Source of the DNA: a virus
Lineage: Duplodnaviria; Heunggongvirae; Uroviricota; Caudoviricetes
Length of the DNA stretch: 64,000 bases
Virus record (IMG/VR): IMGVR_UViG_3300017987_005500
Strand: one strand, 5' to 3'
The translations under genes and the position numbers were made by a program. The notes beneath the pieces were generated by a model. It made no database searches and was not told the origin of the DNA. It saw nothing but the letters and a program-made list of their open reading frames with translations. This document shows, piece by piece, positions 7,159 to 61,533 of this stretch (the stretch's first letter is position 1; each line of letters begins with the position of its first letter).

Positions 7159-7337
7159 GTCCTTATATTATGAGCATCTGTAAAATTATAATCACTATTT
7201 GTAAATAAATTTCCACTTATAGATAAAGCATATTCCATTCTTTCTTTACAATTTTTACATTTTAAATTACTACCTTTATGAATTTTTGCTTTATGTATGT
7301 CACAATCGTAACATGGACTTCTTTTTATAGTCTCCAA
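7155..7337 (-). CDS. Small Cys-rich protein
   Basis: SPCYDC...CKNCKER, overlaps both neighbours. Confidence 0.55.
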   Translation of the reverse strand: METIKRSPCYDCDIHKAKIHKGSNLKCKNCKERMEYALSISGNLFTNSDYNFTDAHNIRT

Positions 7338-8623
7338 TATCTTTCTCCCATCTTTTGTCTCATAACATTGATGTCAAAAATTGACCTAACGTCAATTAAA
7401 CACCCTGTGCTATTAAGCTTAGAGATGAAGAATTCATAACCCAATTGCTTGAACTCATTATGATCTACAGCAATTATAATTGCATCAAATGATTTATCTT
7501 TGATTTCATCTGTGTTCATATAATTTGCTCTAAAATTACTTGATTCAAATTCGTCTTTATTCACATAAGGATCAACTACAGCAATATCAAAACCATAATC
7601 ACCAAATTCATTAATTAAATCAAATGATTTTGAATTTCTTGTATCTGAACAATCAGGTTTAAATGTAAGACCAAAAATACCAATTTTTATTAAACTCATA
7701 TTACATTGATTTTTTATCAATGCTTTCAATGTATTATTAACAATATGTTTTGGCATCCCATCATTAATTCTTCGTCCTGCTAAAATCATCTCAGGGTGAT
7801 AACCAACCTGCTCAGCTTTAAATGTCAAATAATACGGATCCACTCCAATACAATGACCACCTACCAATCCCGGAGTGAAATCCAAGAAATTCCATTTACT
7901 CTTAGCTGCATCTAATACCTCCTTTGTATCAATGTTTAATTTATCAAAGATTATTGAAAATTCATTCATTAGAGCAATGTTTACATCTCTTTGAATATTC
8001 TCAATTACCTTTGCTGCCTCAGCTACTTTAATACTTGACGCTTCATATACGCCAACTTTAATAATGGAAGAATATAAGTTTTTAATATTTTTTAAAGTCT
8101 CTGGGGTATCTCCAGAAACTATTTTAACAATTTTTGTTAATGTATGTTCTTTATCTCCAGGATTTATTCTCTCCGGAGAATATCCTACGTTAAAGTCCTC
8201 TTTCCATTCTAACATAGAACTTTCTTCTAAGATAGGAATACAAACTTTTTCAGTTGCTTCAGGATATACTGTCGACTCATATATAACTGTGCAACCTTCT
8301 TTCATAAAATGTCCAACAGTTATTGAGGCATCTATCAAATATCTGAAGTCTGGAAAACTAACATCCTCAACTGGAGTTGGGACTGCTATAATTATATAAT
8401 CTGCATTTGATATCTCTGATTCATCAGATGTGAATTTTACATATGTTGATGCTAACATATTAATTTCTGATAATTCTCCTGTCGGATCTATATTATTTCT
8501 ATAACTTTTAATTTTTTCCTCATCAACATCATAAGCAATGGTGTCATAATGTTTACCAAATTCAATTGCTAAAGGAAGTCCTACATATCCCAATCCTACA
8601 ACACAAATTATTTTATCTTTCAA
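7325..8623 (-). CDS. UDP-N-acetylhexosamine C6 dehydrogenase (TviB/WbpO type)
   Basis: GLGYVGLP, ESTVYP, YSPERINPG, GLVGGHCIGVDPYYL, TFKPDCSDTRNS. Confidence 0.92.
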   Translation of the reverse strand: MKDKIICVVGLGYVGLPLAIEFGKHYDTIAYDVDEEKIKSYRNNIDPTGELSEINMLASTYVKFTSDESEISNADYIIIAVPTPVEDVSFPDFRYLIDASITVGHFMKEGCTVIYESTVYPEATEKVCIPILEESSMLEWKEDFNVGYSPERINPGDKEHTLTKIVKIVSGDTPETLKNIKNLYSSIIKVGVYEASSIKVAEAAKVIENIQRDVNIALMNEFSIIFDKLNIDTKEVLDAAKSKWNFLDFTPGLVGGHCIGVDPYYLTFKAEQVGYHPEMILAGRRINDGMPKHIVNNTLKALIKNQCNMSLIKIGIFGLTFKPDCSDTRNSKSFDLINEFGDYGFDIAVVDPYVNKDEFESSNFRANYMNTDEIKDKSFDAIIIAVDHNEFKQLGYEFFISKLNSTGCLIDVRSIFDINVMRQKMGERYWRL

Positions 8624-9468: not shown

Positions 9469-10088
9469 TATAAGTCACCATATCCACTATATACTTCATT
9501 TTCACTAACTCCAAGTCTACTAAGTAAACCCAAAACTAACTCTTTTGAAAATCCCATTAATGGAGCTTGGAAACTTATTGGAGAAGGTCCATTTATTTGA
9601 AGTAAATCATTCACTGAATCAATCCAATCTGGCATACAATCTGGGAAATTATTTAAGAGATCAGAATAGTCTGCTCCATACCAAATTTGATTAATTTCTT
9701 TACTTTCAGCGATTGATGCAGCAATTCCCACAAACATTAAATTCCTTGATGGAACATGCATCTCATGAACTAAACCAGAATCATTCTTGACTCCAGTTCC
9801 GGTGAGTCCACTATTTACCTGTAAGTTAGATAATTCAACTGTTTGATGTTTTATATCAAGTTTGGTCAATTGTCTTTCAGCAAACTCCAATTCTTCTTTA
9901 TGGTGCTGACCATAATCAATTAATACGCAATGAGGGTATTTTCCCAAACTTAATGCTAACTCTAATAATAATCTTGAGTCAGCTCCACCGCTATAAAGAA
10001 TTATCAAATCTGGCCATTGAGGTCTTGAAATTTCATGAACCCAAGGTTTTTTTGGTTCTTCCTTATCTGATTTGTCTTCGTTATCCAT
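9468..10088 (-). CDS. queC: QueC-like PP-loop ATPase lacking the C-terminal zinc site
   Basis: YSGGADS, DYGQHH, VPSRN, FPDC. Ends YSGYGDL. Start moved to the ATG at 10088 with AAGGAG. Confidence 0.75.
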   Translation of the reverse strand: MDNEDKSDKEEPKKPWVHEISRPQWPDLIILYSGGADSRLLLELALSLGKYPHCVLIDYGQHHKEELEFAERQLTKLDIKHQTVELSNLQVNSGLTGTGVKNDSGLVHEMHVPSRNLMFVGIAASIAESKEINQIWYGADYSDLLNNFPDCMPDWIDSVNDLLQINGPSPISFQAPLMGFSKELVLGLLSRLGVSENEVYSGYGDL

Positions 10089-10129
10089 AATTTCTCCTTT
10101 TCGCAATTCACAGTTTATGTATTATTTCC

Positions 10130-10208
10130 TTTATTATTTTGTTCTAAATGTTTTTGTAATTTACTAAAATATAATTTTGGATAAAACTTTATGTTATATA
10201 TATTAATT
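10130..10208. promoter_or_regulatory. Back-to-back class B (minus, 10130-10145) and class A (plus, 10195-10204) motifs
   Basis: AGAACAAAATAATAAA faces queC; TTTTGGATAAAAC-N7-TATATATATTAATT faces 10255. Confidence 0.6.
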
Positions 10209-10254
10209 ACTAGGTAGGAAGAATTGTTTTTAACAAATTTAAGGATAACTTAAA

Positions 10255-10470
10255 ATGGAGGTCATGATCATGGCAAAGAAAGACGAAAAGAAAGATACTA
10301 AGACAGATGAAGAAAAAGAAGAACGTAAAGAAAAATGGAAATTCTTCTTTAAGGAATCAGCAAAGTATGTTGGCGGTTTCATCGTTGGAGTCGGCACTAC
10401 ATTCATTACCCTGAATATTCTTAAGGGTGGCGGAGATGCTTCAAGCGATGCCGGCAGCGAATCATTATAA
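10255..10470 (+). CDS. Small single-TM membrane protein
   Basis: Charged N-terminus followed by hydrophobic YVGGFIVGVGTTFITLNIL. Confidence 0.65.
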   Translation: MEVMIMAKKDEKKDTKTDEEKEERKEKWKFFFKESAKYVGGFIVGVGTTFITLNILKGGGDASSDAGSESL

Positions 10471-10473
10471 AAT

Positions 10474-10522
10474 ATTCCCGAGTTATGGGAATCTTTTGGG
10501 AAGGGTTAAAACCTTCCTTTTT
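10474..10522 (+). terminator. Tandem hairpins, second with U-tract
   Basis: ATTCCC/GGGAAT, then GGAAGG/CCTTCC-TTTTT. Confidence 0.6.
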
Positions 10523-10536
10523 GGTAAGGAGTAATT

Positions 10537-11076
10537 ATGCAGATAAATATTCAGTATGCAAAAGAAGAAAAAGATAAAACAAAAGAGTCAGACTTTGCAG
10601 AGATTTCACCTGAGAATGCAAGTGATGATTATATGATGTGCATCGCAAAGAATCCGATTAAAGCATGGGAAAGAATTAATGCATATTACAAAGATACAAT
10701 GAAAATATCCCTGCGAGATCCAGATTTAACAAGCGATGATGATGAAAAAGTATCACCCTCAGTAGCATTTCCAGATGATGCACTAACTGATGCACTTGAA
10801 GCATATTTCTTCAATACCTCAGCTGTATTGGGTATCAATGGTAATGTGAATAAAATCAAGGCATTAAGATCTTTATATCATTTCAATAAGAAAACTGAAG
10901 TGGATGATCTTCCAGAGGGTATCAGTGAAGAAGATATATTGAAAGCAAAGGAATGGTTTGATAAAAGGAATGATGAAAAACCTGAACCAAGTGAAGCAGA
11001 TAAGAAAAGAATCAAAACAAAAAGAAAAAGAATTATCATTCAAATTGTTAAAGATTTCATCTTAAATGTTAAATAA
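10537..11076 (+). CDS. Hypothetical protein
   Basis: TAAGGAG RBS, 179 aa. Confidence 0.7.
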   Translation: MQINIQYAKEEKDKTKESDFAEISPENASDDYMMCIAKNPIKAWERINAYYKDTMKISLRDPDLTSDDDEKVSPSVAFPDDALTDALEAYFFNTSAVLGINGNVNKIKALRSLYHFNKKTEVDDLPEGISEEDILKAKEWFDKRNDEKPEPSEADKKRIKTKRKRIIIQIVKDFILNVK

Positions 11077-19564: not shown

Positions 19565-20704
19565 CTATTTATAAAATTCCTTAATTTTCAATACTACATA
19601 CCTTATCATTTCATCTGTTAAATCTGGATAAATAGGTAAAGCTAAAGTATTTTCAGCTGCATATTCAGAGTTAGGAAAATCTCCTTTTTTATATCTTAAA
19701 TCTCTAAAACATGGTTGAAGGTGAAGAGGTACTGGATAATAAATTTCAGTTTGAATGGCATTATCAAATAAAAATTCTTTTAATTCATCTCTTTTATTTG
19801 GAGCATATATTACATATTGATTATAGATGTGGCGACTTTGAGCTTCAACAGGAAGTGTAATATGTTTAGTTAAATCATTTTCCTCAAACCATTCATTGTA
19901 TTTAGTTGCATTTATTTGACGTGTTAAAGTCCACTTATCCAAATACTTTAATTTAACTGATAATATAGCTGCTTGAATTGCATCAAGTCTAAAGTTTCCT
20001 CCAATGATACCATGATGATATTTTGGAGCTGCTCCATGAGTCCTTAATAATTTCATCCTCTTATATAACTTTTCATCATTTGTAGTAACCATTCCACCAT
20101 CGCCAAATGCTCCTAAATTTTTTGATGGAAAGAATGAGAAACAACCAATGTGACCCATAGATCCTGCTCTATAATTATTATGGACAGCTCCAATTGCTTG
20201 AGCAGCATCTTCAATAATTGAAATTCCATGATTGTTTGCAAATTCAGCTATCTTAGACATATTGGCACATTGACCAAATAAATGAACAGGAATTATTGCT
20301 TTGACTCGAGAAAATCCATATGACATTTCAGTTAACTTTAAAATGATTTCGTCTAAATGATCAATAGATATATTAAATGTGTCTTTATCAATGTCCATAA
20401 AAACAGGAGTCGCTCCGACTCTCGCAATTGCTCCAGCAGTTGCAAAGAATGAATAAGGAGTTGTTATAACAATATCGCCTTGTTTGATATTGAGTGCCAT
20501 AAGAGCTATAATTAGAGCGTCGGTACCTGATGAAACTCCAAGAGCATATCTTGAAACACAATAACTTTTCATTGAATGTTCAAATTTCTCTACAGATTCT
20601 CCAAGAATAAATTGTTGATTTTCACATACTTCATTTATAGCTTCTTGAATCTCTCCTTTGATTTGACTATACTGTTTTTTCAGATCTAATAAAGGGACTT
20701 TCAT
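19565..20704 (-). CDS. DegT/DnrJ/EryC1/StrS sugar aminotransferase (WbpE-like)
   Basis: SSGTDAL, VHLFGQ, EDAAQA, SFFPSKNLGAFGDGG, NFRLDAIQA. Confidence 0.93.
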   Translation of the reverse strand: MKVPLLDLKKQYSQIKGEIQEAINEVCENQQFILGESVEKFEHSMKSYCVSRYALGVSSGTDALIIALMALNIKQGDIVITTPYSFFATAGAIARVGATPVFMDIDKDTFNISIDHLDEIILKLTEMSYGFSRVKAIIPVHLFGQCANMSKIAEFANNHGISIIEDAAQAIGAVHNNYRAGSMGHIGCFSFFPSKNLGAFGDGGMVTTNDEKLYKRMKLLRTHGAAPKYHHGIIGGNFRLDAIQAAILSVKLKYLDKWTLTRQINATKYNEWFEENDLTKHITLPVEAQSRHIYNQYVIYAPNKRDELKEFLFDNAIQTEIYYPVPLHLQPCFRDLRYKKGDFPNSEYAAENTLALPIYPDLTDEMIRYVVLKIKEFYK

Positions 20705-20705
20705 T

Positions 20706-21782
20706 TTATTTTTCCTTTAATAAAATTTCGCATATTCTTTCAGCTGCTTTTCCATCTCTAAGTCCATCATCCAATTTACCTAATTTATAATCAGGATTCA
20801 ATCTTTCTTCTGTATATCTTATAATTTTATCAAAATTGCTACCTGCTAATATATTATGTCCGCTATCTATTGTATCAACCTGTTCTGTATTTTCTCTTAA
20901 TGTGACACAAGGAACTTGTAGAGCAGCTGCTTCAATTTGAAGTCCACCTGAATCAGTTAAAACAACTTTTGCATATTTAACTAAAGTTATAAAGTCCATA
21001 TATCCTAAAGGTTCTAAAACAATAATATCTCTTAAATAATGTTGAAATTTAAATTGTATTATTTTATCTTGAGTCCTTGGATGAATTGGAAAAATTACTC
21101 TATTATTCATTGATAAATAAGAAAGTGCTTTAAGTATAAATTCAAGATTTTCTTTATTATCAACATTAGAAGGTCTATGCATAGTTACTGCGATATAAGG
21201 TTTCTTTCCATATGGATTTTTTGTAATCTTTTTAACATTATATAAAAGATTGTCAATCATTGTATCACCAACTACAAAAATTCTTTTTTCACTATAATTT
21301 TCTTCTAATAAATTTCCTCTTGCTTCATTGATTGTGCAAAATAAATAATCTGAAACAGAGTCTGCTACAATTCTATTTATTTCTTCAGGCATTGACATAT
21401 CATAACTTCTCAATCCTGCTTCAACATGAGCAACCTTTATATGAAGCTTTGAAGCAACTAATGCACAAGCTAAAGTTGAATTGACATCTCCTATAACAAC
21501 TACAAGATCAGGTCTTTCTTTAGTACATACCTTTTCAAATTCAAGCATTACATGAGCTGTTTGATGAGCATGAGATCCTGACCCAACTCCTAAATTATGA
21601 TGAGGTTCTGGAATCTCTAATTCCTGGAAAAAGACCTCCGACATTTTATGGTCGTAATGCTGGCCAGTATGAACAATTTTAAAAAGGACGTCAGGTTGTT
21701 GAGGATACTTTTTTAGTGCTCTTACAATTGGTGCAAGTTTCATAAAGTTTGGTCTTGCTCCAGCAGTTAATAATATTTTCAT
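20706..21782 (-). CDS. Non-hydrolysing UDP-GlcNAc 2-epimerase (WecB/WbpI-like)
   Basis: GARPNFMK, HTGQHYD, GDVNST, HVEAGLRS, PEEINR, TDSGG. Confidence 0.93.
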   Translation of the reverse strand: MKILLTAGARPNFMKLAPIVRALKKYPQQPDVLFKIVHTGQHYDHKMSEVFFQELEIPEPHHNLGVGSGSHAHQTAHVMLEFEKVCTKERPDLVVVIGDVNSTLACALVASKLHIKVAHVEAGLRSYDMSMPEEINRIVADSVSDYLFCTINEARGNLLEENYSEKRIFVVGDTMIDNLLYNVKKITKNPYGKKPYIAVTMHRPSNVDNKENLEFILKALSYLSMNNRVIFPIHPRTQDKIIQFKFQHYLRDIIVLEPLGYMDFITLVKYAKVVLTDSGGLQIEAAALQVPCVTLRENTEQVDTIDSGHNILAGSNFDKIIRYTEERLNPDYKLGKLDDGLRDGKAAERICEILLKEK

Positions 21783-31203: not shown

Positions 31204-32028
31204 TTATAAAAATCCCTTATATTGTTTACTATCTTCGGTTAATTTAAACTCTAATTTATTATTAGGATTTTGTTGCAAGAACATAGTAAGTCTATCTGGT
31301 ATTTCACCCTTGTCCCAATACTCTGCTATATATCCCATATCAATTGCAACTCCACCCAAATGTTTAATCAACCCAGTATAAAGACGTCCCAATTCTCCAG
31401 CAGATACTAACCACATATCATATTTATCCCAATCATCTTCAATTGTCTTAATCACTTTTGAAAATGATTTATTATAATGATCTTCATAATGCTTAACTAT
31501 ATTAATTAAAGTTATGTCATATTTTTCAAGATTTCTTTTAACTCTTGGACATGCTGTGATGAAAGCTATTTTTCTTTTATTCATTACATTGAGAATATTT
31601 CTTTGGTTTCCCAATTTAAGGCAAAGTAAAAAATTAATTTCAGGATTGCAATATGTATCTATATCAAATTCAGCAAGATTATATAATTCTTTCCACATTT
31701 TCAATCTTCTGTCAGTTTTACCTGACATTGGTTTATAATTCTTTCTACATCGTGGCCAAAATTCTCCATCATAATATACTTGAGGGGTATCTATATAATT
31801 TGCTCGAGATGAAAAGAATGCCCAGGAATTTAAAACATCATATAATTTATGATGAGGAATTCCTTCTTTAAGTACAATTTGATTTATTTGCTCAGTATCG
31901 TTATTAAGCAATGAATGTATATACTTAATTCCTCCATCTCCATATCTTATCAACGAAAAAGGTTTCTTATTTTTAATACATTCATCAATTTCATTAATAA
32001 GATATTTTAATTTGACAACAGGTTGCAT
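31204..32028 (-). CDS. GT-D fold (DUF1792-like) glycosyltransferase
   Basis: FSLIRYGDG...LVSAG...GGVAIDMG. Confidence 0.7.
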   Translation of the reverse strand: MQPVVKLKYLINEIDECIKNKKPFSLIRYGDGGIKYIHSLLNNDTEQINQIVLKEGIPHHKLYDVLNSWAFFSSRANYIDTPQVYYDGEFWPRCRKNYKPMSGKTDRRLKMWKELYNLAEFDIDTYCNPEINFLLCLKLGNQRNILNVMNKRKIAFITACPRVKRNLEKYDITLINIVKHYEDHYNKSFSKVIKTIEDDWDKYDMWLVSAGELGRLYTGLIKHLGGVAIDMGYIAEYWDKGEIPDRLTMFLQQNPNNKLEFKLTEDSKQYKGFL

Positions 32029-33056
32029 TATTTAATACCTTGTTTTATTTTTCTATTTTCAATAAGTTTTTCAAAATGTTTAACCATTTTTCCCATATTC
32101 TCTTCTCTGTTACCCAATTTAAATACTCTCTGTCTTGCTACAGAACCATAATTGAACATTTCATTTCTATTCTTTAATAAATATTCAATTGTATTGTAAA
32201 ATGATTCATAGTTATTTTCGGCAATAAGTCCATTCTCTCCACCAACTACATAGTCCTGCATTCCTGACATTGGAGCATTTGTACACACAACTGGGCAACC
32301 TGTCAACATTGCCTCAGATGGTGGAATATGTAAACCTTCAAGTGAAGTAGGAGCTAACCATAAATTGATATGATTATAAAATGTATTTTTAGTTTTCTTG
32401 TCAGGTCTTTGAAAATATTTATCAATGACTTCAATGTGATGAGGTTGAGATTCATTTCCCATCATCCATAATTGAATTCTATATTTTCTTCTTAGTTTTG
32501 TGACTGCATCAATAATCCATTTAACTCTTTTGGTTTGTCTTTTACCACCTTCATTATAAAGACCTCCCAATATAGTTACATCGTTTGTTTTATTTCTAAT
32601 TTTCAATTGAGTAAAATCAGCAAGGTCATAACCTGGTCTTATTATTTCAGATAAAAAGTTAAGGTCTTCCAATTTACGTTGAAGACAATTGCTATTTACT
32701 ATCTTTTCAGTTGGAGCTTTAAGGACTGAATTGATAATTTGTTTCTCATTCATATTCCATAGCTCAAATCCTCTTATCCAATGTGTTTTCAATCCACATC
32801 TTTCAGGGAGTCTTACAGTAGACCTTACAGTACCAAAACCTGTAGCAATTACAATATCAGCATCTGGCACATTATTAAAACTTCTAATAATTTTATGATC
32901 AGCAATAAGAGGAGTCCAGGTGTGTTGATTTCTTCCAGTATCAATTATTGTGACTTTGTGTCCCAACTTTTTAAGAGTGTTAGCGGATTTAATGATTGTC
33001 ATAGACCCACCGTTATTTCCAAGAGAACAATTCATTAGATTAAATGTTATTCGCAT
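32028..33056 (-). CDS. GT4 family glycosyltransferase
   Basis: GNNGG, DADIVIAT, EGLHIPPSEAMLTGCPVV. Confidence 0.85.
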   Translation of the reverse strand: MRITFNLMNCSLGNNGGSMTIIKSANTLKKLGHKVTIIDTGRNQHTWTPLIADHKIIRSFNNVPDADIVIATGFGTVRSTVRLPERCGLKTHWIRGFELWNMNEKQIINSVLKAPTEKIVNSNCLQRKLEDLNFLSEIIRPGYDLADFTQLKIRNKTNDVTILGGLYNEGGKRQTKRVKWIIDAVTKLRRKYRIQLWMMGNESQPHHIEVIDKYFQRPDKKTKNTFYNHINLWLAPTSLEGLHIPPSEAMLTGCPVVCTNAPMSGMQDYVVGGENGLIAENNYESFYNTIEYLLKNRNEMFNYGSVARQRVFKLGNREENMGKMVKHFEKLIENRKIKQGIK

Positions 33057-39865: not shown

Positions 39866-40939
39866 TTACTTGATTCCAATATCTGACATAGTCTTAACAA
39901 GGAGTCCACTTGAAATTGCAGTTTGTGGATTTTTTGCCATTCTTATTGAAGAAACATCAAATGGTAATTCATATTTTTTAATTGTCTCTTTGAAAAGTTC
40001 TAAAAATCCAGGGACTGAAGAAGTTCCTCCCGCTATTACAATAGGAATATCCTCATCAAGTTCTAAATCAAAATTTTCATTAAATTGTGATATTATATTT
40101 TTAACTGTGTAATTCATCAATGCAGAGTAATAATATGTTAGCGCTTCTAAGACTCTACGTCGTTTTTTATTTTTTTCTGTGCTAAATCCTTTACTTAAAT
40201 CTAAATATCTTTCTTTAATATTTGTAACTCGATTTGGAGTTATACCTAAATCGTTTGCTACATTTGTGTCTATCCAATCTCCAGATCTTGAAGTTGAAAA
40301 TGTAAATGCTTCAACTGCCTTATATGCGCAACATACATTACACATTCCAGCTCCAAATGATAATCCTATTCCAGAGAATTTCTCTTTAGCACATTCAGAA
40401 TAAATAACTGCCATTGCTTCATTACAACTTGTGTGATTAACTCCAATTGCGCCAAGTATTCTTGTGAATACCTTTTCATGATATGTTACACTTCTGTCCA
40501 TATCAATTGCTTCAGCAGGAACTGAATATGAACAATATACATCTTTATCTTTAACATTCCCAAACATATTTTTAATTATAAGAGCAAGAACATCAACTGC
40601 ATCAAGTTCGCTTGGAGAAATCATTCCTTTCTCCATAGGACGAGACACAGGTTTATTAAAAAGATTTGCCATTTTAAAAGCGTCATCTCCAATAATATAT
40701 GTATTCCCATCTTCAGATTTAATATGAGATAAGTCTGAAAATTCAGATATTGAAACTTCATCTGTATCAATTGATAAAAACATATTTCTTGTTATATTTG
40801 CAGAAGTCGGTTTATCTGAAGTTGATAAAATAATAGTCATTGTACCAATGTCCAAACCAGCTGCTATTTTTTTATTCTTTGTGGTTTTTGGTTTCTTTCG
40901 AGTATCTTCGTTTGGGTCCGTTATAATATCATCTGTCAT
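39866..40939 (-). CDS. Actin-fold ATPase, volactin-like
   Basis: GLDIGTM (phosphate 1), NEAMAVIYSE, GLSFGAG (phosphate 2), GDWID, IVIAGGTS (adenosine). Confidence 0.85.
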   Translation of the reverse strand: MTDDIITDPNEDTRKKPKTTKNKKIAAGLDIGTMTIILSTSDKPTSANITRNMFLSIDTDEVSISEFSDLSHIKSEDGNTYIIGDDAFKMANLFNKPVSRPMEKGMISPSELDAVDVLALIIKNMFGNVKDKDVYCSYSVPAEAIDMDRSVTYHEKVFTRILGAIGVNHTSCNEAMAVIYSECAKEKFSGIGLSFGAGMCNVCCAYKAVEAFTFSTSRSGDWIDTNVANDLGITPNRVTNIKERYLDLSKGFSTEKNKKRRRVLEALTYYYSALMNYTVKNIISQFNENFDLELDEDIPIVIAGGTSSVPGFLELFKETIKKYELPFDVSSIRMAKNPQTAISSGLLVKTMSDIGIK

Positions 40940-41472
40940 TCTTTATCTCCTTTTAATTCACGTAATATATCAGCACTCTCAGAAATATCAGACTCTACAT
41001 ATATTTCTTCTGATTTTGTATCAGATATTTCCATTCCGTCTAAACTAATCTCTGGTACAAATTCATCATCATCTAATGATTCAATTTTAGGTCCTGTTGA
41101 AACTGTTTTACTGAAAGATTTTTTGGGTTTAATGACTCCGCCTTCCATTAATTTATTCATCCCATCCATCAATAATTCAAATTTTCTATTTAATTTAGAT
41201 AATTCTTTTGAGCTAACACCATCTTTAATTCTTTGTACAATAACTTTTTCTGGTTTTTTAGCTTTAGCAATTTTTGTATTTTTCGGAAGAGTTTTAATTA
41301 CTTGAGGTTTTTCATCCTCAACTATTTGATATTTTGAAAGTCCATTCATTTTCAATGCTACAATAACTAAATTAATATCAACTCCAGATATCTCAATATT
41401 ACATGGAGTTCGTACCAATCCAACTCTTGGTAATGTAAATGAGCATCCTGGATCTTTAACTATAAGTCTCAT
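40936..41472 (-). CDS. Hypothetical protein coupled to the actin gene (candidate adaptor)
   Basis: ATGA overlap; small N-domain, short coiled coil, acidic linker, terminal amphipathic helix ISESADILRELKG. Confidence 0.6.
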   Translation of the reverse strand: MRLIVKDPGCSFTLPRVGLVRTPCNIEISGVDINLVIVALKMNGLSKYQIVEDEKPQVIKTLPKNTKIAKAKKPEKVIVQRIKDGVSSKELSKLNRKFELLMDGMNKLMEGGVIKPKKSFSKTVSTGPKIESLDDDEFVPEISLDGMEISDTKSEEIYVESDISESADILRELKGDKE

Positions 41473-45587: not shown

Positions 45588-46268
45588 CTAAAAAGTCAAT
45601 TCGTTAAACTTAAAATCTAGTTTATTCGGTTTCTTTTTATACTCTTTTTCATTTGTTCTATGACTCATGTCTATTTTCTCATATAAAACATCTACTAATT
45701 TACATAATACATGTCCTATTAAAATATGCATTTCTTGTATTCTTGCTGTATTATATGAAGGTACTTTAATTAATACATCATATTTATCAAATTCAACTTT
45801 ACAGTTACCTGTAAGAAGAATTGTTTTAATTCCCATTTCTTTAGCTCTATCAAGAGCAAGTCTTACATTAGGTGATGTTCCAGATGTTGAAATACCAATA
45901 GCAACATCACCTGGATTGCCAAGAGCAGAAATTTGTTTTGAAAAAATCTCTTTGTAATTGAAGTCATTTGAAATTGCTGTAAGAGCTGAAGTGTCTGTAG
46001 TTAGAGCAATTGCAGGAAGAGGTTCTCGGTCAATTGAAAATCTATTTGTAAATTCAGCAGCTATATGTTGAGCATCAGCAGCACTACCTCCATTACCAAA
46101 TAAAAATAATTTCCTCCTTGTAATTGGATAATCTCTTTTCTCAGGATTTGGATTGAATATCTCTTCTAATAGTTTACTAGCTCTAATAATAAAATTATGA
46201 CATTTACTTAATGTAAGAGCTGTTAATTTTTCATGTTCAAAAAATATCTCATCAACTATAGTTACCAT
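45588..46268 (-). CDS. gmhA: Phosphoheptose isomerase
   Basis: GNGGSAADAQHIAAE, SND, ISTSG.S.NV, TARIQEMH. Confidence 0.95.
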   Translation of the reverse strand: MVTIVDEIFFEHEKLTALTLSKCHNFIIRASKLLEEIFNPNPEKRDYPITRRKLFLFGNGGSAADAQHIAAEFTNRFSIDREPLPAIALTTDTSALTAISNDFNYKEIFSKQISALGNPGDVAIGISTSGTSPNVRLALDRAKEMGIKTILLTGNCKVEFDKYDVLIKVPSYNTARIQEMHILIGHVLCKLVDVLYEKIDMSHRTNEKEYKKKPNKLDFKFNELTF

Positions 46269-46683
46269 GTTGTAGAAACTCCTTTCTTTTTGAAAGTTAT
46301 ACGTTTACGTTGGCGTAAACCATCACGCACCAGCGTTGTGGTTTTGTCTGCGCAACTTCCTAATTATAATTACTTACAAATTCCAGTACTTTTTTTATTT
46401 ATTACTTAAAAACTTTTTTTATTAACCTATTTTGGAGTCGTCACTAAGGTGACTCCCTTCTAATTCTAATTCCTGGGGAATTCCAATTCTTAAAGGACAT
46501 ATATTCAATATAAGTTATTATTATCATTCTTATTATTGTACCTATCAAAAGAACTAATTATTACTTTTTTTAAAATACATGTACCAAAAAGGTTAATATT
46601 TGACCAATTATTACATTTTCAAAAAAACTAGAACTATTTATTTTATTTTTTAAAAATTAAGAACCAAATGTTATATTTTAGCA
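46269..46683. other. Candidate replication origin
   Basis: Longest non-coding gap in the window. GC-rich hairpins, AT-rich tracts and phased direct repeats beside a Rep-like gene, close to the coding-strand switch. Confidence 0.55.
46551..46680 (+). repeat. Iteron-like imperfect direct repeats (about GAACYAAWTATTAYATTTT)
   Basis: Copies start at 46551, 46601, 46631 and 46661, with a weak copy at 46581. Confidence 0.55.
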
Positions 46684-47667
46684 TCATTTGAAGAATTCAA
46701 AAACATTATTTTCATATGTCCAATTTTTAATTAATGAGTTATCTTTAAGAACCAATAATCCTTTTTCAATAGCTTTTATATTTTCTGAATGACTTTTATT
46801 CATAAAACCTAATCCTGATATAATTGTACAATCTTTAAACCTTTTATGTTTAAAACCATTTCTTGATAAAATATATTTTCTATAAATAAGTTGAGATGTT
46901 TCAGATAAATTGAAAAAATCAACTTTTGAAGTAATCCAATCAAAATTGATACATATTAAATTATACAAAAATAACCTTCCAAAATTAGTATTGAATGTTA
47001 TTTTATATTTTTTATTATTTCTTCTTCCAGATGGAGTAATATTACATGAAGCTAATTCACAATCAAAAATATTTTCATTTTCTATTTTTACAGGATTTTC
47101 TGTAAATTTTTTCATTTGTTTATTATATACTCTAATAGGATAATAAAAATTAAATTTACAACTTGCAGTTGAATTAAAAAGATTTTCGATTGCTATAGAA
47201 GATAAATTTCTAAAAAAATAATTTTGTTTGATAGTTTTTTCTTCTATGCACATATTAAAATCTTGAGGAATAACTGAAGTTGCAGCTTCATTATAATCAA
47301 TTTCATCTTTCTGATTTTCAACTTGAATTACTATTTTATTTGTATGTCTATTATATGGATTAGCAGGAATATAATTTTCTTTTTCTTCATCTTCATAATA
47401 TTTTTTAGTTTTATACCAATGATTAGCTAACAAATGACCAATATAATCAATCAACATAAAATTTCTAGAATCCCAAAAACTTGACATTGTTACAACATTT
47501 TTTTCATGTTTTGGATAAGGAGATAGAGTTAATGGGAATTCAATATCTCTATGACCTCTTCGTTTAGAAATTCCTATCAATAATCTATTCAAACTTCTTT
47601 CACTTATCATATCTTTTTTAATTTTTTCTTTTTTCATAAAATTTTCCTTTAGATATTCATTTTTCAC
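46684..47667 (-). CDS. Putative plasmid-type replication initiator (TrfA/RepA-like winged helix)
   Basis: YKITFN..FGRLF...FDWI....FFNL...SQLIY and terminal IEKGLLVLKDNSLIKNWTYENNVFEF resemble initiator wHTH ends. Confidence 0.5.
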   Translation of the reverse strand: MKNEYLKENFMKKEKIKKDMISERSLNRLLIGISKRRGHRDIEFPLTLSPYPKHEKNVVTMSSFWDSRNFMLIDYIGHLLANHWYKTKKYYEDEEKENYIPANPYNRHTNKIVIQVENQKDEIDYNEAATSVIPQDFNMCIEEKTIKQNYFFRNLSSIAIENLFNSTASCKFNFYYPIRVYNKQMKKFTENPVKIENENIFDCELASCNITPSGRRNNKKYKITFNTNFGRLFLYNLICINFDWITSKVDFFNLSETSQLIYRKYILSRNGFKHKRFKDCTIISGLGFMNKSHSENIKAIEKGLLVLKDNSLIKNWTYENNVFEFFK

Positions 47668-47739
47668 TTTAATATATGTTACTAATAATAAAAATGGATT
47701 CTTATTTAAAATAATAAAAATACTTTAGGTTCTATGTGT

Positions 47740-47749
47740 TATATATATT
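47740..47749 (+). promoter_or_regulatory. Class A promoter-like motif
   Basis: TATATATATT upstream of the helicase. Confidence 0.5.
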
Positions 47750-47810
47750 ACTTTGTAATAACGAGTATCCAATATTACTTTTAGTAACAAAATTAAAAGG
47801 AAATATATGT

Positions 47811-49064
47811 ATGAAATTATCGAGTGAACAAGAAAATGTAACGTCCATTTTGACTAAATGGGCGATGAGGAGAGTGAAACCAAATAACGACCCATTATTA
47901 GATAATTACACAACAATGGGTGGTTATGCGGGCACTGGAAAGACGACATTAATAGCTGAATTAAGACGACGAATATATAATCAAGCGCCAGGACTTAATG
48001 TGGCATTTGTGACATTTACAGGAAAAGCTTCTTTGGTACTTGACACTAAATTACAAGAAGCTGGAGTTGTAAGAAATAATGATTATGTAGGTACTATTCA
48101 TAGACTTATTTATAGACCAATTTTCTCAGAAGATAAACAAAAGGTAGTTGGATGGGAACCTAGATATAAGGGTGAATTGGAATGTGATTTAATAATAATT
48201 GATGAAGCTTCTATGGTTTCAAAGAAGATATGGGATGATTTAATTTATTATGAAATTCCAATAATTGCCATTGGAGATCATGGACAGCTTCCTCCAATTG
48301 GTGATGCATTCTCATTAATGCAAAATCCAAATATGGCATTAACACAAGTTCATAGACAAGCATTGAATCATCCAATTATTAAATTATCTATGCACATAAG
48401 GAAATATGGGTTTATTCCAAATGGATTATTTGAAGATGACATTCCATTGAAAGAGCAGAGAGTATTTAAACTCAGCTGGAATAATGATCCAATGTGTCAA
48501 AGAGTATTCAATAAAATTCAATTCGATGATGAAAAGAATGATGTTATTGCTTTATGTGGCATGAATAGGACGAGAGTTGGTATTAACAACCTTATAAGAA
48601 ATATGATTGGAAATACTGAAAATTATCCTTATGCAAATGACAAAGTTGTTTGTCTAAAGAATAACTATGATACAAAAATATTCAATGGACAGATAGGAAG
48701 TGTTGCTGGATTTGTCACACATTTCAATGATGAATTATATAACATGACTATTGACTTTGGTTATGAGGAAATGATAGAATGTCTTGTGCATAAGCATTGT
48801 TTTGGAATGGAAAATCACAGTGAAATATTCGACAAGATATATGCTGGAGAAATGAAAAAGATGATTTCTTCAACAGGTTTTAATTCAGTTGATTTATGTG
48901 ATTGGGGTTATTGTGTATCTGTTCATAAATCCCAAGGTAGTGAATGGGATAAGGTAATTTTATTTGAAGAAAGATCACAACATTGGGATGATGATTTTTA
49001 TAAGCGCTGGTTATACACAGCAGTTACCAGAGCAAAAGAGAAATTATTCGTCATTACAAATTGA
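47811..49064 (+). CDS. dda: SF1B helicase (Dda/RecD2-like)
   Basis: GYAGTGKTT, IIDEASM, GDHGQLPP, HRQ, HKSQGSEW, YTAVTRA. Start moved to 47811. Confidence 0.9.
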   Translation: MKLSSEQENVTSILTKWAMRRVKPNNDPLLDNYTTMGGYAGTGKTTLIAELRRRIYNQAPGLNVAFVTFTGKASLVLDTKLQEAGVVRNNDYVGTIHRLIYRPIFSEDKQKVVGWEPRYKGELECDLIIIDEASMVSKKIWDDLIYYEIPIIAIGDHGQLPPIGDAFSLMQNPNMALTQVHRQALNHPIIKLSMHIRKYGFIPNGLFEDDIPLKEQRVFKLSWNNDPMCQRVFNKIQFDDEKNDVIALCGMNRTRVGINNLIRNMIGNTENYPYANDKVVCLKNNYDTKIFNGQIGSVAGFVTHFNDELYNMTIDFGYEEMIECLVHKHCFGMENHSEIFDKIYAGEMKKMISSTGFNSVDLCDWGYCVSVHKSQGSEWDKVILFEERSQHWDDDFYKRWLYTAVTRAKEKLFVITN

Positions 49065-49538: not shown

Positions 49539-50507
49539 GTGAGTTTACTTGAAGCGATATGGGTGGATAAATATAGACCGAAATCAATAGACGACGTTGT
49601 ATTTTCGGGTGAACAGAAAGACGACTTTGCGAGATATGTGAAATCAAGAGAAATTCCACATTTATGTTTATATGGTCCTCCAGGAGGAGGAAAAACAACA
49701 ATTGCATTAATTTTAGCATCACCATATGGAGTATTGAATAATCCAAATGATAATTTACTTGAGATAAATGGATCTGCTAAAAGCTCAAGAGGAATTGGAT
49801 TTGTAGAAGATGTAATTGTGCCATTTCTTAAACTTCCTCCAATGGGTAATGATAAACATAAAATTGTTTTTATTGACGAAGCTGATTATTTAACTGATGC
49901 AAGTTTTCATTCATTGAGAAATCCTGTTGAAAGATTTAGTAAAACTACAAGATTTGTTTTCACATGTAACTATGTGTCGAAACTGCCAGAAGCTTTACAA
50001 TCTCGTTTTCAATTTTATGAGTTTAAACAGATGTCAATTGAGTATGTAACAAATCATTGTAAAAATATTTTAGAATCTGAAAAGATTAAATATAAAGAAA
50101 AGGATATACAATATATAGTAAGTAATTTATATCCTGACATAAGAAGGATTGTAAATAGTTTACAAAGATGTTCAGTAACAGGTGAATTGAAAGTTAATAA
50201 GGATGTTGTATTAACTACTGAAAAATTAGTAATTGCAGCTACAATTGAAATTATTGCAGCAATTATGAATAATGAAAATAGTAAAATTGGAAAGAAAGTA
50301 AATGAAATACTGAAGTTAATAAGTGAGAAAGATATTGAATTCAGGAGTTTATATTCTTCTCTTTTTTTTACTAAAAATGTACCCCCGCCAGTTAAAATTA
50401 TTATAAATAAATACACTAATGAACACGGTAGCTGTTTGGTCCCAAATATGCACTTTATGAGTCTTATATTTGATATAATTCAATGTTTAAAAAGTTATGG
50501 AAAATAA
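49539..50507 (+). CDS. Clamp loader AAA+ subunit (T4 gp44/RFC-like)
   Basis: WVDKYRP, GPPGGGKTT, IDEAD, TCNY, LQSR, DIRR. Confidence 0.92.
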   Translation: MSLLEAIWVDKYRPKSIDDVVFSGEQKDDFARYVKSREIPHLCLYGPPGGGKTTIALILASPYGVLNNPNDNLLEINGSAKSSRGIGFVEDVIVPFLKLPPMGNDKHKIVFIDEADYLTDASFHSLRNPVERFSKTTRFVFTCNYVSKLPEALQSRFQFYEFKQMSIEYVTNHCKNILESEKIKYKEKDIQYIVSNLYPDIRRIVNSLQRCSVTGELKVNKDVVLTTEKLVIAATIEIIAAIMNNENSKIGKKVNEILKLISEKDIEFRSLYSSLFFTKNVPPPVKIIINKYTNEHGSCLVPNMHFMSLIFDIIQCLKSYGK

Positions 50508-50509
50508 TT

Positions 50510-51520
50510 ATGTTATGTGAATATGGATGCGGTCAAGAAGCAACTCATCAATTTAGAAATGGTAAATGGTGTTGTTTAAATCATGTAAATAAATGTCCGT
50601 ATGTAAAGAAAAAGTATATAGGGAAAAATTTAAGTATAGAAACTAAAAATAAAATATCAAAAATACATAAAGGAAAAATAGTTAATGAAGAAATTAAGAA
50701 GAAGATGAGTGAATCTCATAAAGGAAAAATAGTTAGTGAAGAAACTAAAAAAAGAATGAGTAAATCTCATAAAGGAAAAATAGTTAGTGAAGAAACTAAA
50801 AAAAGAATGAGTAAATCTCATAAAGGAAGAATAGTAAAAGAATCAACAAGAATTAAAATAGGAAATGCTCATAAAGGAAAAATAGTTAGTAAAAAAACTA
50901 AAAATAAAATGAGTGAATCTCGAAAAGGAAAAATTCCATGGAATAAAGGACATAAATTAAATATACAATATTACATAGATAATTATCCATTATTTTCAAA
51001 AATTGAAGAGATGAGATATAACCCTGATAAACCAGGTGAAAAGGAAATACAAGTACATTGCAAAAATCATAATTGCTCAAATTCAAAAGAACAAAATGGA
51101 TGGTTTACTCCAACTGAAAATCAACTTGATGGAAGACGAAGAGCATTAGAAGATAAAAATGGTAATGGAGGACATTATTTTTATTGTTGTGATGAATGTA
51201 AAGAAGAATGTCCTTTATATGCAAAAAAAGTTTCTCAATTAATTAAAGAAGATCAAATAAAAGCGGGAATTATTAAAAAAGAATATTATACACAATCTGA
51301 ATATAATATTTTGAGAACTGAAGTTTTAGAAAGAGCAGAATATTTATGCGAATATTGTAAAAAAGAAGCTATAGATGTTCATCATATTAAACCACAAAAA
51401 TTAGAACCATTTTTTGCATTAGATCCTGATTATGGAATTGCTTGTTGTAAAGAATGTCATTACAAATATGGACATAAGGATGAATGCTCAACTGGGAAAT
51501 TGGCGAATGAACAATGTTAA
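50510..51520 (+). mobile_element. Free-standing HNH homing endonuclease with tandem NUMOD3 repeats
   Basis: MLCEYGCG; six KGK.VSEETKKRMSKSH-type units; WFTPT module; CEYC..HHIKP..CCKECH. Confidence 0.8.
50720..50821 (+). repeat. Exact 51-nt tandem duplication (NUMOD3 unit)
   Basis: AAAGGAAAAATAGTTAGTGAAGAAACTAAAAAAAGAATGAGTAAATCTCAT occurs twice, with degenerate copies on both sides. Confidence 0.85.
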
Positions 51521-60513: not shown

Positions 60514-61533
60514 ATGATAATTATAACTGGCGGCGCGGGATTTATAGGTAGCAATCTCATTCAATTATTAAATGAAAATAACATAGACAATATTGTTGTT
60601 GTTGATGATTTTGAAGAAAATCCCGATAAATGGAAAAATTTAATAGGTTTATCAATATACGAATATATTGATAAAAATGATTTCTTAAAATTTATAAAGA
60701 ATAGCAAATATCAAATCCAAGGTTATAAAATATCAGTAATCATTCATCTCGGAGCTTGCACAGATACAACAAATAATGATGTAAAATATATGATGGATAA
60801 CAATTATAGTTATTCAAAAGAGTTATTAGAACTTGCTCTTTATAATGATGCACAATTTATATACGCTTCAAGTGCTGCAACATATGGAGCAAGCACTGAA
60901 TTTAAAGATGAATTAATACCTTCCTTAAGTCCTCTCAATCCATATGCCCTTTCTAAACATTTATTTGATCAGTATGTATTCAATAGTAAATATCGTACGA
61001 AAGCAGTTGCTTTGAAATTTTTTAATGTATATGGTCCTAATGAATGTCACAAAGGTAAAATGTCAAGTTTTATCAATCATGCGTTTTATCAATTTAAAGT
61101 CAATGGACGCGTCAAATTATTCAAATCAAACGATCCAAATATAGAAGACGGAGAACAATCAAGAGATTTTATTTATGTTAAAGATGTTGTTAATGTAATA
61201 TATAAATTTATGCAAGATTTTAAATCAGGTATTTATAATGTTGGTTCTGGATTAAGTATTTCTTATAATACTATTGTAAGAAGTGTATATAAATCAATGG
61301 GATTCTCTAATGGATTTTATACATCAAGAGGAAAATTTATTGATTATATTGATATTCCAGGAGATATAAGTAAGCAATATCAAAATTTTACAAAAGCAAA
61401 CATTAGTAAATTAAAACAAGAATATCCAGATGTTGTAAAGTCTTTTAAGTCTATTGAGGAAGGAATTAATGAGTATGTTATGTTTTTAATGGACCGTAAT
61501 AATTACGGAAGGAGAGTGATTGATGAGCGATAA
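60514..61533 (+). CDS. hldD: ADP-L-glycero-D-manno-heptose 6-epimerase
   Basis: TGGAGFIGSN, HLGACTDTT, YASSAATYG, LNPYALSK, NVYGPNE.HKGKM, GEQ.RDF. Confidence 0.93.
   Translation: MIIITGGAGFIGSNLIQLLNENNIDNIVVVDDFEENPDKWKNLIGLSIYEYIDKNDFLKFIKNSKYQIQGYKISVIIHLGACTDTTNNDVKYMMDNNYSYSKELLELALYNDAQFIYASSAATYGASTEFKDELIPSLSPLNPYALSKHLFDQYVFNSKYRTKAVALKFFNVYGPNECHKGKMSSFINHAFYQFKVNGRVKLFKSNDPNIEDGEQSRDFIYVKDVVNVIYKFMQDFKSGIYNVGSGLSISYNTIVRSVYKSMGFSNGFYTSRGKFIDYIDIPGDISKQYQNFTKANISKLKQEYPDVVKSFKSIEEGINEYVMFLMDRNNYGRRVIDER

Follow-up and report, generated by a model that had tools for sequence, protein, structure and literature searches.

A Rep-like initiator gene and a probable plasmid-like replication origin at a strand switch of a jumbo phage genome

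The main finding of this study is that a jumbo phage genome contains, at a switch of gene orientation and back to back with genes of its replisome, a gene for a 317-aa protein folded like the replication initiators of plasmids, and that degenerate repeats follow directly past its stop codon. We favour, with moderate confidence, the interpretation that this protein (Rep) is an origin-binding initiator of the RepE/pi/RepA double winged-helix kind, that the repeats are its sites and that the origin lies here. The phage probably begins copying its DNA at this locus. An earlier note on the 64,000-nucleotide stretch analysed here (the window) had claimed an initiator plus origin at the strand switch. 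This remains the best reading, supported by the initiator fold, by repeats found 3' of the gene across the family and by the position beside the replication block.

The rep gene and the strand switch

The locus consists of the following features, in the order of their coordinates.
45588-46268, minus strand: gene of a SIS-domain protein (PF13580, E 1.5e-21)
46311-46393, minus strand: promoter-plus-leader block upstream of the SIS gene
46434-46456, plus strand: conserved G+C-rich hairpin between the repeats and the SIS promoter
46490-46700, no strand: AT-rich stretch, a candidate unwinding region, 13-20% G+C, overlapping the repeats
46524-46674, minus strand: degenerate iteron-like repeats directly past the rep stop codon
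46684-47637, minus strand: Rep-like initiator gene, 317 aa, two winged-helix domains, of an unannotated family
47638-47810, no strand: divergent control region with two promoter-like motifs, a palindrome and an extra core copy
47811-49064, plus strand: Dda/RecD-like SF1B helicase (phrog_325, E 3e-88), first gene of the plus-strand replication block
49539-50507, plus strand: clamp-loader AAA+ subunit of the T4 gp44 type (phrog_168)

Gene calls bear out the 415-nt non-coding gap that had been claimed, which runs from 46269 to 46683 between the SIS gene on one side and the rep ORF on the other. This ORF is open up to a GTG at 47667 (46684-47667), so the gene of 327 codons in the earlier note is present as an ORF, but the product indicated is 317 aa. 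We place the start most likely at the ATG at 47637, because a ribosome-binding site precedes this codon and all relatives begin there. Minus-strand genes occupy the window between about 19 kb and 47.6 kb, and from 47.8 kb onward the genes lie on the plus strand. The divergence described beyond rep, with a helicase on its far side, is confirmed and falls in the 173-nt spacer between the two genes (47638-47810). Downstream of the helicase come, in this order, a conserved 133-aa gene, the clamp loader and a NUMOD3/HNH homing endonuclease, and further along the plus strand a 5'-3' exonuclease, a virion protein and a ribonucleotide reductase. The label "T4-like" that had been given to the virus holds for replisome parts (the Dda-like helicase, the phrog_168 clamp loader and the 5'-3' exonuclease) and for nothing beyond these. 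DNA similarity of the window to cultured phages is confined to 120 nt of the helicase gene. The homing endonuclease (50483-51520) is inserted past the clamp-loader gene and carries 51-nt coding repeats (50666-50934), while the clamp-loader homologue of the P0007 contig has an intein domain instead. Sugar-nucleotide genes are numerous in the window (7325-8623, 19565-21782, 32028-33056, 45588-46268 and 60514-61533); the set comprises UDP-glucose dehydrogenase, aminotransferase, glycosyltransferase, SIS isomerase and epimerase, and suggests modification of DNA or of surface glycans. No tRNA was found near the gap.

The Rep protein has no match in Pfam (E up to 1), NCBIfam or PHROG, and it reaches the threshold of neither Pfam Rep_3 (PF01051/PF21205) nor any other named Rep profile. 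Nor do any of 58 aligned family members show a relevant domain in Pfam (E up to 0.01), and tblastn with Rep and two relatives as queries returned nothing from cultured phages or from PLSDB plasmids. The sole match in a sequence search of the PDB is a weak one, to Fur (E 0.15). An AlphaFold2 model of Rep was obtained with the family alignment as input (pLDDT 90.8, pTM 0.90). Its top structural match is the R6K pi-iteron complex (2nra_C, Z 11.1 over 206 residues, rmsd 3.6, model residues 5-317), followed by RctB domains 2-3 (5ubf_A, Z 9.7), RepE (2z9o_A, Z 6.5) and the WH1 domain of pPS10 RepA (1hkq_B, Z 5.5), and generic winged-helix proteins rank lower, at Z 5 or less. The Foldseek comparison with Rep initiators that the earlier note had called for places RepE54 at the top with probability 1.00; its list is almost all RepE54, plus RctB, pi and a Rep-DUE complex. 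The nearest clusters in the ESM Atlas, by features and structure, carry Rep3_N, RepC, RepA_C, RPA or TrfA labels, and matches in BFVD include "replication initiator" proteins of uncultured phages. The winged-helix pattern like that of TrfA/RepA, which had been noticed at the end of the protein, is real and reaches further than was proposed. Both WH1 and WH2 are found, and together they extend across the whole protein in the double winged-helix architecture of the Rep_3-type initiator superfamily.

The Rep family and the repeats past the stop codon

An exhaustive HMMER search with Rep recovered no fewer than 94 cluster representatives (18 with an E-value of 1e-10 or better), and the family spans jumbo-phage contigs and bacterial integrative elements. 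The syntenic phage contigs share the order helicase (divergent), rep, gap, SIS and a 670-690-aa gene, with Rep identities of 48% in L001-L003, 49% in the P0007 contigs and 30-33% in L021-L023; the L024 contig holds the N-terminus of rep. The gene diverges from the helicase/clamp-loader block in five phage lineages, and in L025, a 277-kb contig, a distant member (hhalign probability 98.4%) is located at another strand switch. The closest relative, L007, came from a metagenome scan and its Rep is 54% identical. In the integrative elements, which come from bacterial MAGs, the rep member encodes about 400 aa, or 330 aa, and lies 2-4 nt behind, or overlaps, the gene of a Prim-Pol/PriCT_1/DnaB_C primase-helicase, with an integrase nearby. 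A 0.8-kb gene-free stretch that opens with 21-22-nt arrays lies behind rep in L008-L018 and L026-L027, and this arrangement is an unannotated island replication module.

At, or just past, the rep stop codon, seven other lineages have 2-6 tandem repeats of 20-22 nt, as listed here.
L021: 5.5-6 copies of 20 nt, starting 15 nt before the rep stop
L007: two perfect 21-nt copies from 12 nt past the stop, and a third degenerate copy
L008 and L017, integrative elements: four copies of 21 nt each at the rep 3' end
L014, integrative element: 2.8 copies of 21 nt at the rep 3' end
L026, integrative element: 2.4 copies of 22 nt at the rep 3' end
L025: two 14-nt copies with a 20-nt period, directly past the stop

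L001, a close relative of the window, has no clear array, and its repeats, like those of L004, are loosened in a similar way to those of the window. The initiator fold, the association with a primase-helicase and the phased arrays at the rep stop recur over seven lineages, and together they indicate that the Rep family consists of origin-binding initiators with the origin 3' of the gene. L007 also has a second array (1460-1582), about 260 nt past the rep stop, with at least five perfect tandem copies of 23 nt; the contig ends inside it, and the array is probably the reason for the assembly break there.

The gap of the window has units of about 30 nt (46664-46635, 46634-46606, 46584-46555 and 46554-46524) and an odd 21-nt unit (46605-46585). 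Read on the rep strand, each unit opens with GTTC (or GTAC) and closes with a GTAATAAT-like block. Cores of 14 nt start at 46551, 46601, 46631 and 46661 and have 10-11 of the 14 positions in common, which bears out four of the five repeat positions proposed in the earlier note; the fifth, 46581, is weak (6/14). The self-identity of the gap peaks at offsets 30 and 50, and the cores are spaced 30/30/50 nt apart, compared with 20-22 nt in the relatives. The earlier note had made significance against the AT-rich background a test of these repeats, and within the window alone they stand at best marginally above that background. Exact k-mers are not significantly enriched in the gap, and the mismatch-tolerant repeat families that beat shuffles there are T-tracts, not the listed motif. 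At one length setting, all but 3-7 of 500 dinucleotide shuffles fall below the periodicity at offset 30; at two other settings it is not significant, and other real AT-rich segments of the window reach the same periodicity scores as the gap. TRF reports no array in the gap, and none better anywhere in the window. On the window alone, the gap repeats would not be called iterons. An iteron origin is expected to have at least three direct repeats of about 17-23 bp, in phase with the helix and adjacent to the initiator gene; the arrays of the relatives fit this description, and the window has four degenerate copies that are marginal against shuffles.

The gap repeats gain credibility only because of the arrays in the relatives. 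The L007 repeat, read across its unit boundary, shares its core with the best copies in the window: a GTAAT-type block, three variable bases and GTTC. When a 14-mer from this repeat is allowed up to three mismatches, one of its five matches in the window falls in the gap, on the rep strand, against a chance expectation of about 0.02 in 415 nt, given 6 per window. The 30-nt unit of the window aligns with the 21-nt unit of L007 via a 9-nt insertion, and the sequence directly past the rep stop is also common to the two. A version of the core that ends in GG or AG and has one optional base is found at just three places in the 64 kb, two of them in the gap and the third in the rep-helicase spacer, so all at this locus, and always on the rep strand; the pattern was picked after the data had been seen, so this count is supporting evidence only. 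GTAATA occurs 8 times against 1.4 expected. Judging from these sequence comparisons, we lean towards the view that the listed gap repeats are probably degenerate Rep sites.

The alternative that we take most seriously, though we consider it unlikely, is that Rep is real and the listed repeats are not its sites. They would be chance likenesses in AT-rich DNA or weak promoters of the AACA-N6 type, directed antisense into the 3' end of rep, and the true Rep sites would be fewer or elsewhere, for example at the GTAATA palindrome of the spacer. The marginal statistics of the repeats within the window are in line with this view. So is the distribution of (T/A)AGAACA-type motifs, whose intergenic copies without exception point toward the gene that follows and stop 10-12 nt short of the ribosome-binding site of that gene, a distance that implies very short leaders.
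3994, 10144, 17660 and 39856, minus strand: intergenic GAACA-type motifs
53943, 55370, 58528, 60464 and 63490, plus strand: intergenic GAACA-type motifs
These motifs fit the pattern of the AR9 late promoter, AACA-(6N)-TA/G; some antisense RNAs of AR9 are made from this promoter too (PMC5312081). The gap copies retain the N6-T[A/T] part and their cores fit the promoter-like pattern save for one base, and the hairpin at 46434-46456 with its T tail on the plus strand also counts for this alternative. However, all four gap copies have T or C at the fourth base of AACA, where eight of the nine gene-facing intergenic copies have A, and the gap copies face no gene. Furthermore, the core recurs in L007 as a perfect 21-nt tandem repeat in the same place, and the arrays of L021, L008, L017 and L026 do not resemble promoters.

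Other elements of the locus and a proposed mechanism

If the repeats are Rep sites, as we favour, Rep would bind them from its own stop codon onward (46524-46674), and bound Rep would open the adjoining, very AT-rich DNA. The opened DNA would serve as the lytic origin, the entry point at which the phage's own helicase is recruited and its replisome assembles. Genes of this replisome (the Dda-like helicase, the clamp loader and the exonuclease) begin 170 nt from rep on the opposite strand. A predicted Rep-helicase complex scored 0.00 in a run without controls, a value that speaks neither for nor against binding. AT-rich tracts beside the repeats had been pointed out before, and 13-20% G+C was indeed measured. 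The stretch 46490-46700 is the most AT-rich part of the locus, yet the whole locus including rep has about 20% G+C, against 30% for the genome, so composition is not discriminating. GC skew, which the earlier note had proposed as a check, was rejected as evidence for an origin: it flips here, but it does so wherever else the genes of the window change direction (near 10 kb and 20 kb), and it follows gene orientation rather than marking an origin. No DnaA box (up to one mismatch) occurs in 46269-46683 or 47638-47810, and such boxes are not enriched in the window; this feature is not universal among origins.

The spacer between rep and the helicase has the layout of a control region. Two promoter-like motifs of the AACA-N6 type, at 47675-47683 (minus strand) toward rep and at 47781-47789 (plus strand) toward the helicase, are both kept in relatives. 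Between them lies a 15-nt palindrome of two GTAATA half-sites (47746-47760), adjoined by the extra copy of the iteron core (47769-47778, minus strand). Rep probably also binds both of these elements, which lie in the promoter region of its gene and may act as an operator through which it would limit its own synthesis. RepE-type autoregulation involves an inverted repeat in the rep promoter region that contains part of the iteron; the palindrome is not conserved in the shorter spacer of L001. A sigma-70 promoter scan gave no more matches than shuffles.

The hairpin at 46434-46456 shows compensatory stem changes in L001 and has a T-rich tail on the plus strand only. The SIS leader block is about 96-100% identical to its counterpart in L001 (11225-11305), though the SIS coding DNA is about 80% identical, and it is unique in the window. 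It probably lies outside the origin and may be a structured 5' UTR or a site for a regulator, with too little variation for a pairing test. Its predicted RNA fold is unremarkable (z = -0.8), its core was not found in IMG/VR, and Rfam gives no family in the gap, either at the gathering threshold or at E up to 10. L021 has a different G+C-rich leader in a similar place, behind a terminator.

A further question is whether Rep and its repeats serve the lytic cycle at all. They might instead form the replicon of a plasmid-prophage or carrier state, comparable to P1 repA/oriR, with lytic replication starting elsewhere or by recombination. Rep/iteron replicons are known to maintain phage-plasmids of the P1 type. 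The actin module that the earlier note had connected with such a lifestyle is confirmed 6 kb away, where the actin-like gene at 39866-40939 belongs to Pfam Volactin (PF25216, E 4.8e-74) and overlaps an upstream partner without a family (40936-41472). Furthermore, pBtic235 has been described as a circular jumbo plasmid-prophage (PMC9700832). However, the module stands back to back with replisome genes of a lytic type, rep and the helicase bear the same promoter-like motif, and neither a partition ATPase nor a repressor nor an integrase was seen in the scanned parts of the window, so that we regard a separate maintenance replicon as quite improbable. Least probable of all, in our judgement very unlikely, is that Rep, with its two winged-helix domains, regulates transcription or binds DNA in some other role, and that the gap is only a terminator plus SIS promoter and leader; winged-helix domains are common in regulators, the lower structural matches are generic proteins of this kind, the sole PDB sequence match is the weak one to Fur, and the gap does hold a hairpin and a conserved leader, but the full-length match spans both initiator domains and lies above the generic ones, in mobile elements rep is linked to genes of primase-helicases, and tandem 20-22-nt arrays lie behind it across the family.

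Comparison with known systems and divergence among related phages

The interpretation that we prefer, an initiator with its own repeated sites, places the locus next to several well-known systems. Like the members of the Rep_3 or RepE-pi-RepA group (F RepE, R6K pi and pPS10 RepA, and also TrfA/RPA and domains 2-3 of Vibrio RctB), Rep has two tandem winged-helix domains. As in iteron plasmids, the direct repeats of the relatives have a period of about two helical turns and adjoin the gene, AT-rich DNA, a candidate unwinding element, lies beside them, and there is a possible inverted-repeat operator built of a partial repeat. The locus differs from iteron plasmids in that its initiator has no sequence match to PF01051 or to any named Rep profile, the repeats are placed on the 3' side of the gene, from its stop codon onward, and those of the window are degenerate and about 30 nt apart. 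Moreover, the replicon is here a phage of roughly 300 kb with its own replisome genes, and there is no DnaA box. SaPI/PICI islands likewise have origin repeats directly downstream of the initiator gene, and the integrative elements of the Rep family show the order primase-helicase, initiator and repeats near an integrase. In SaPI, however, the initiator is the helicase itself, whereas here it is a separate double winged-helix protein.

Among phages, P1 with repA/oriR and lambda with O/ori also encode a protein that binds the origin at repeated sites, which lie inside the gene of this protein or adjoin it. As in lambdoid phages, the initiator and its putative sites diverge together here among related phages. 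P1 uses RepA for plasmid maintenance and has a separate lytic replicon; lambda has its sites inside gene O and borrows the helicase of the host; and the combination of a jumbo genome with T4-type replisome parts is absent from both. The origins oriF and oriG of T4 combine a promoter with an unwinding element and are primed through R-loops. The locus shares with T4 the Dda-type helicase, the clamp-loader genes and promoter-like motifs in an AT-rich region. T4 needs no dedicated initiator, whereas the present locus has a protein of the Rep fold with predicted cognate repeats and with arrays across its family, and it does not correspond to an R-loop origin of the T4 type.

Rep/iteron origins are textbook knowledge for plasmids and some phages, so the kind of origin is already known. 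What is new is the unprofiled family, the placement of the sites 3' of the gene, the setting in a jumbo phage beside T4-type replisome genes and the pattern of a hypervariable cassette. We are not aware of any described origin of replication in jumbo phages outside the T4 type, those of the phiKZ/AR9 type included, and full-text literature searches turned up no report of Rep/iteron origins in jumbo phages. The locus is a concrete origin candidate, and through it a family that lacked annotation, with no fewer than 94 cluster representatives, is given a probable function. Relatives with clean arrays, such as L021 and L008, would provide minimal origins for vectors or replication assays.

The divergence between the window and L001 deserves attention in this context. 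Rep is 48% identical between the two (46684-47637 versus 10001-10936), compared with 88-94% for the clamp loader, the 133-aa protein, the helicase and the p670 protein, and 72% for SIS, and the DNA past rep cannot be aligned with that of L001 until the SIS promoter and leader. Rep and its putative sites behave as a fast-evolving specificity cassette between conserved neighbours, as is expected of co-evolving specificity pairs. We tentatively propose, as a possibility and not yet as a probable conclusion, that a clade of uncultured jumbo phages, equipped with T4-type replisome parts, starts replication at a plasmid-like Rep/iteron origin, of which Rep and its sites form a hypervariable module that is exchanged or driven apart between phages otherwise about 90% identical. 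If so, this would be the first defined origin for such jumbo phages, and it would mean that relatives or satellites infecting the same cell compete with or exclude one another at the level of the replicon. The contrast of 48% with 88-94% suggests diversifying pressure on initiator-site specificity in these phages.
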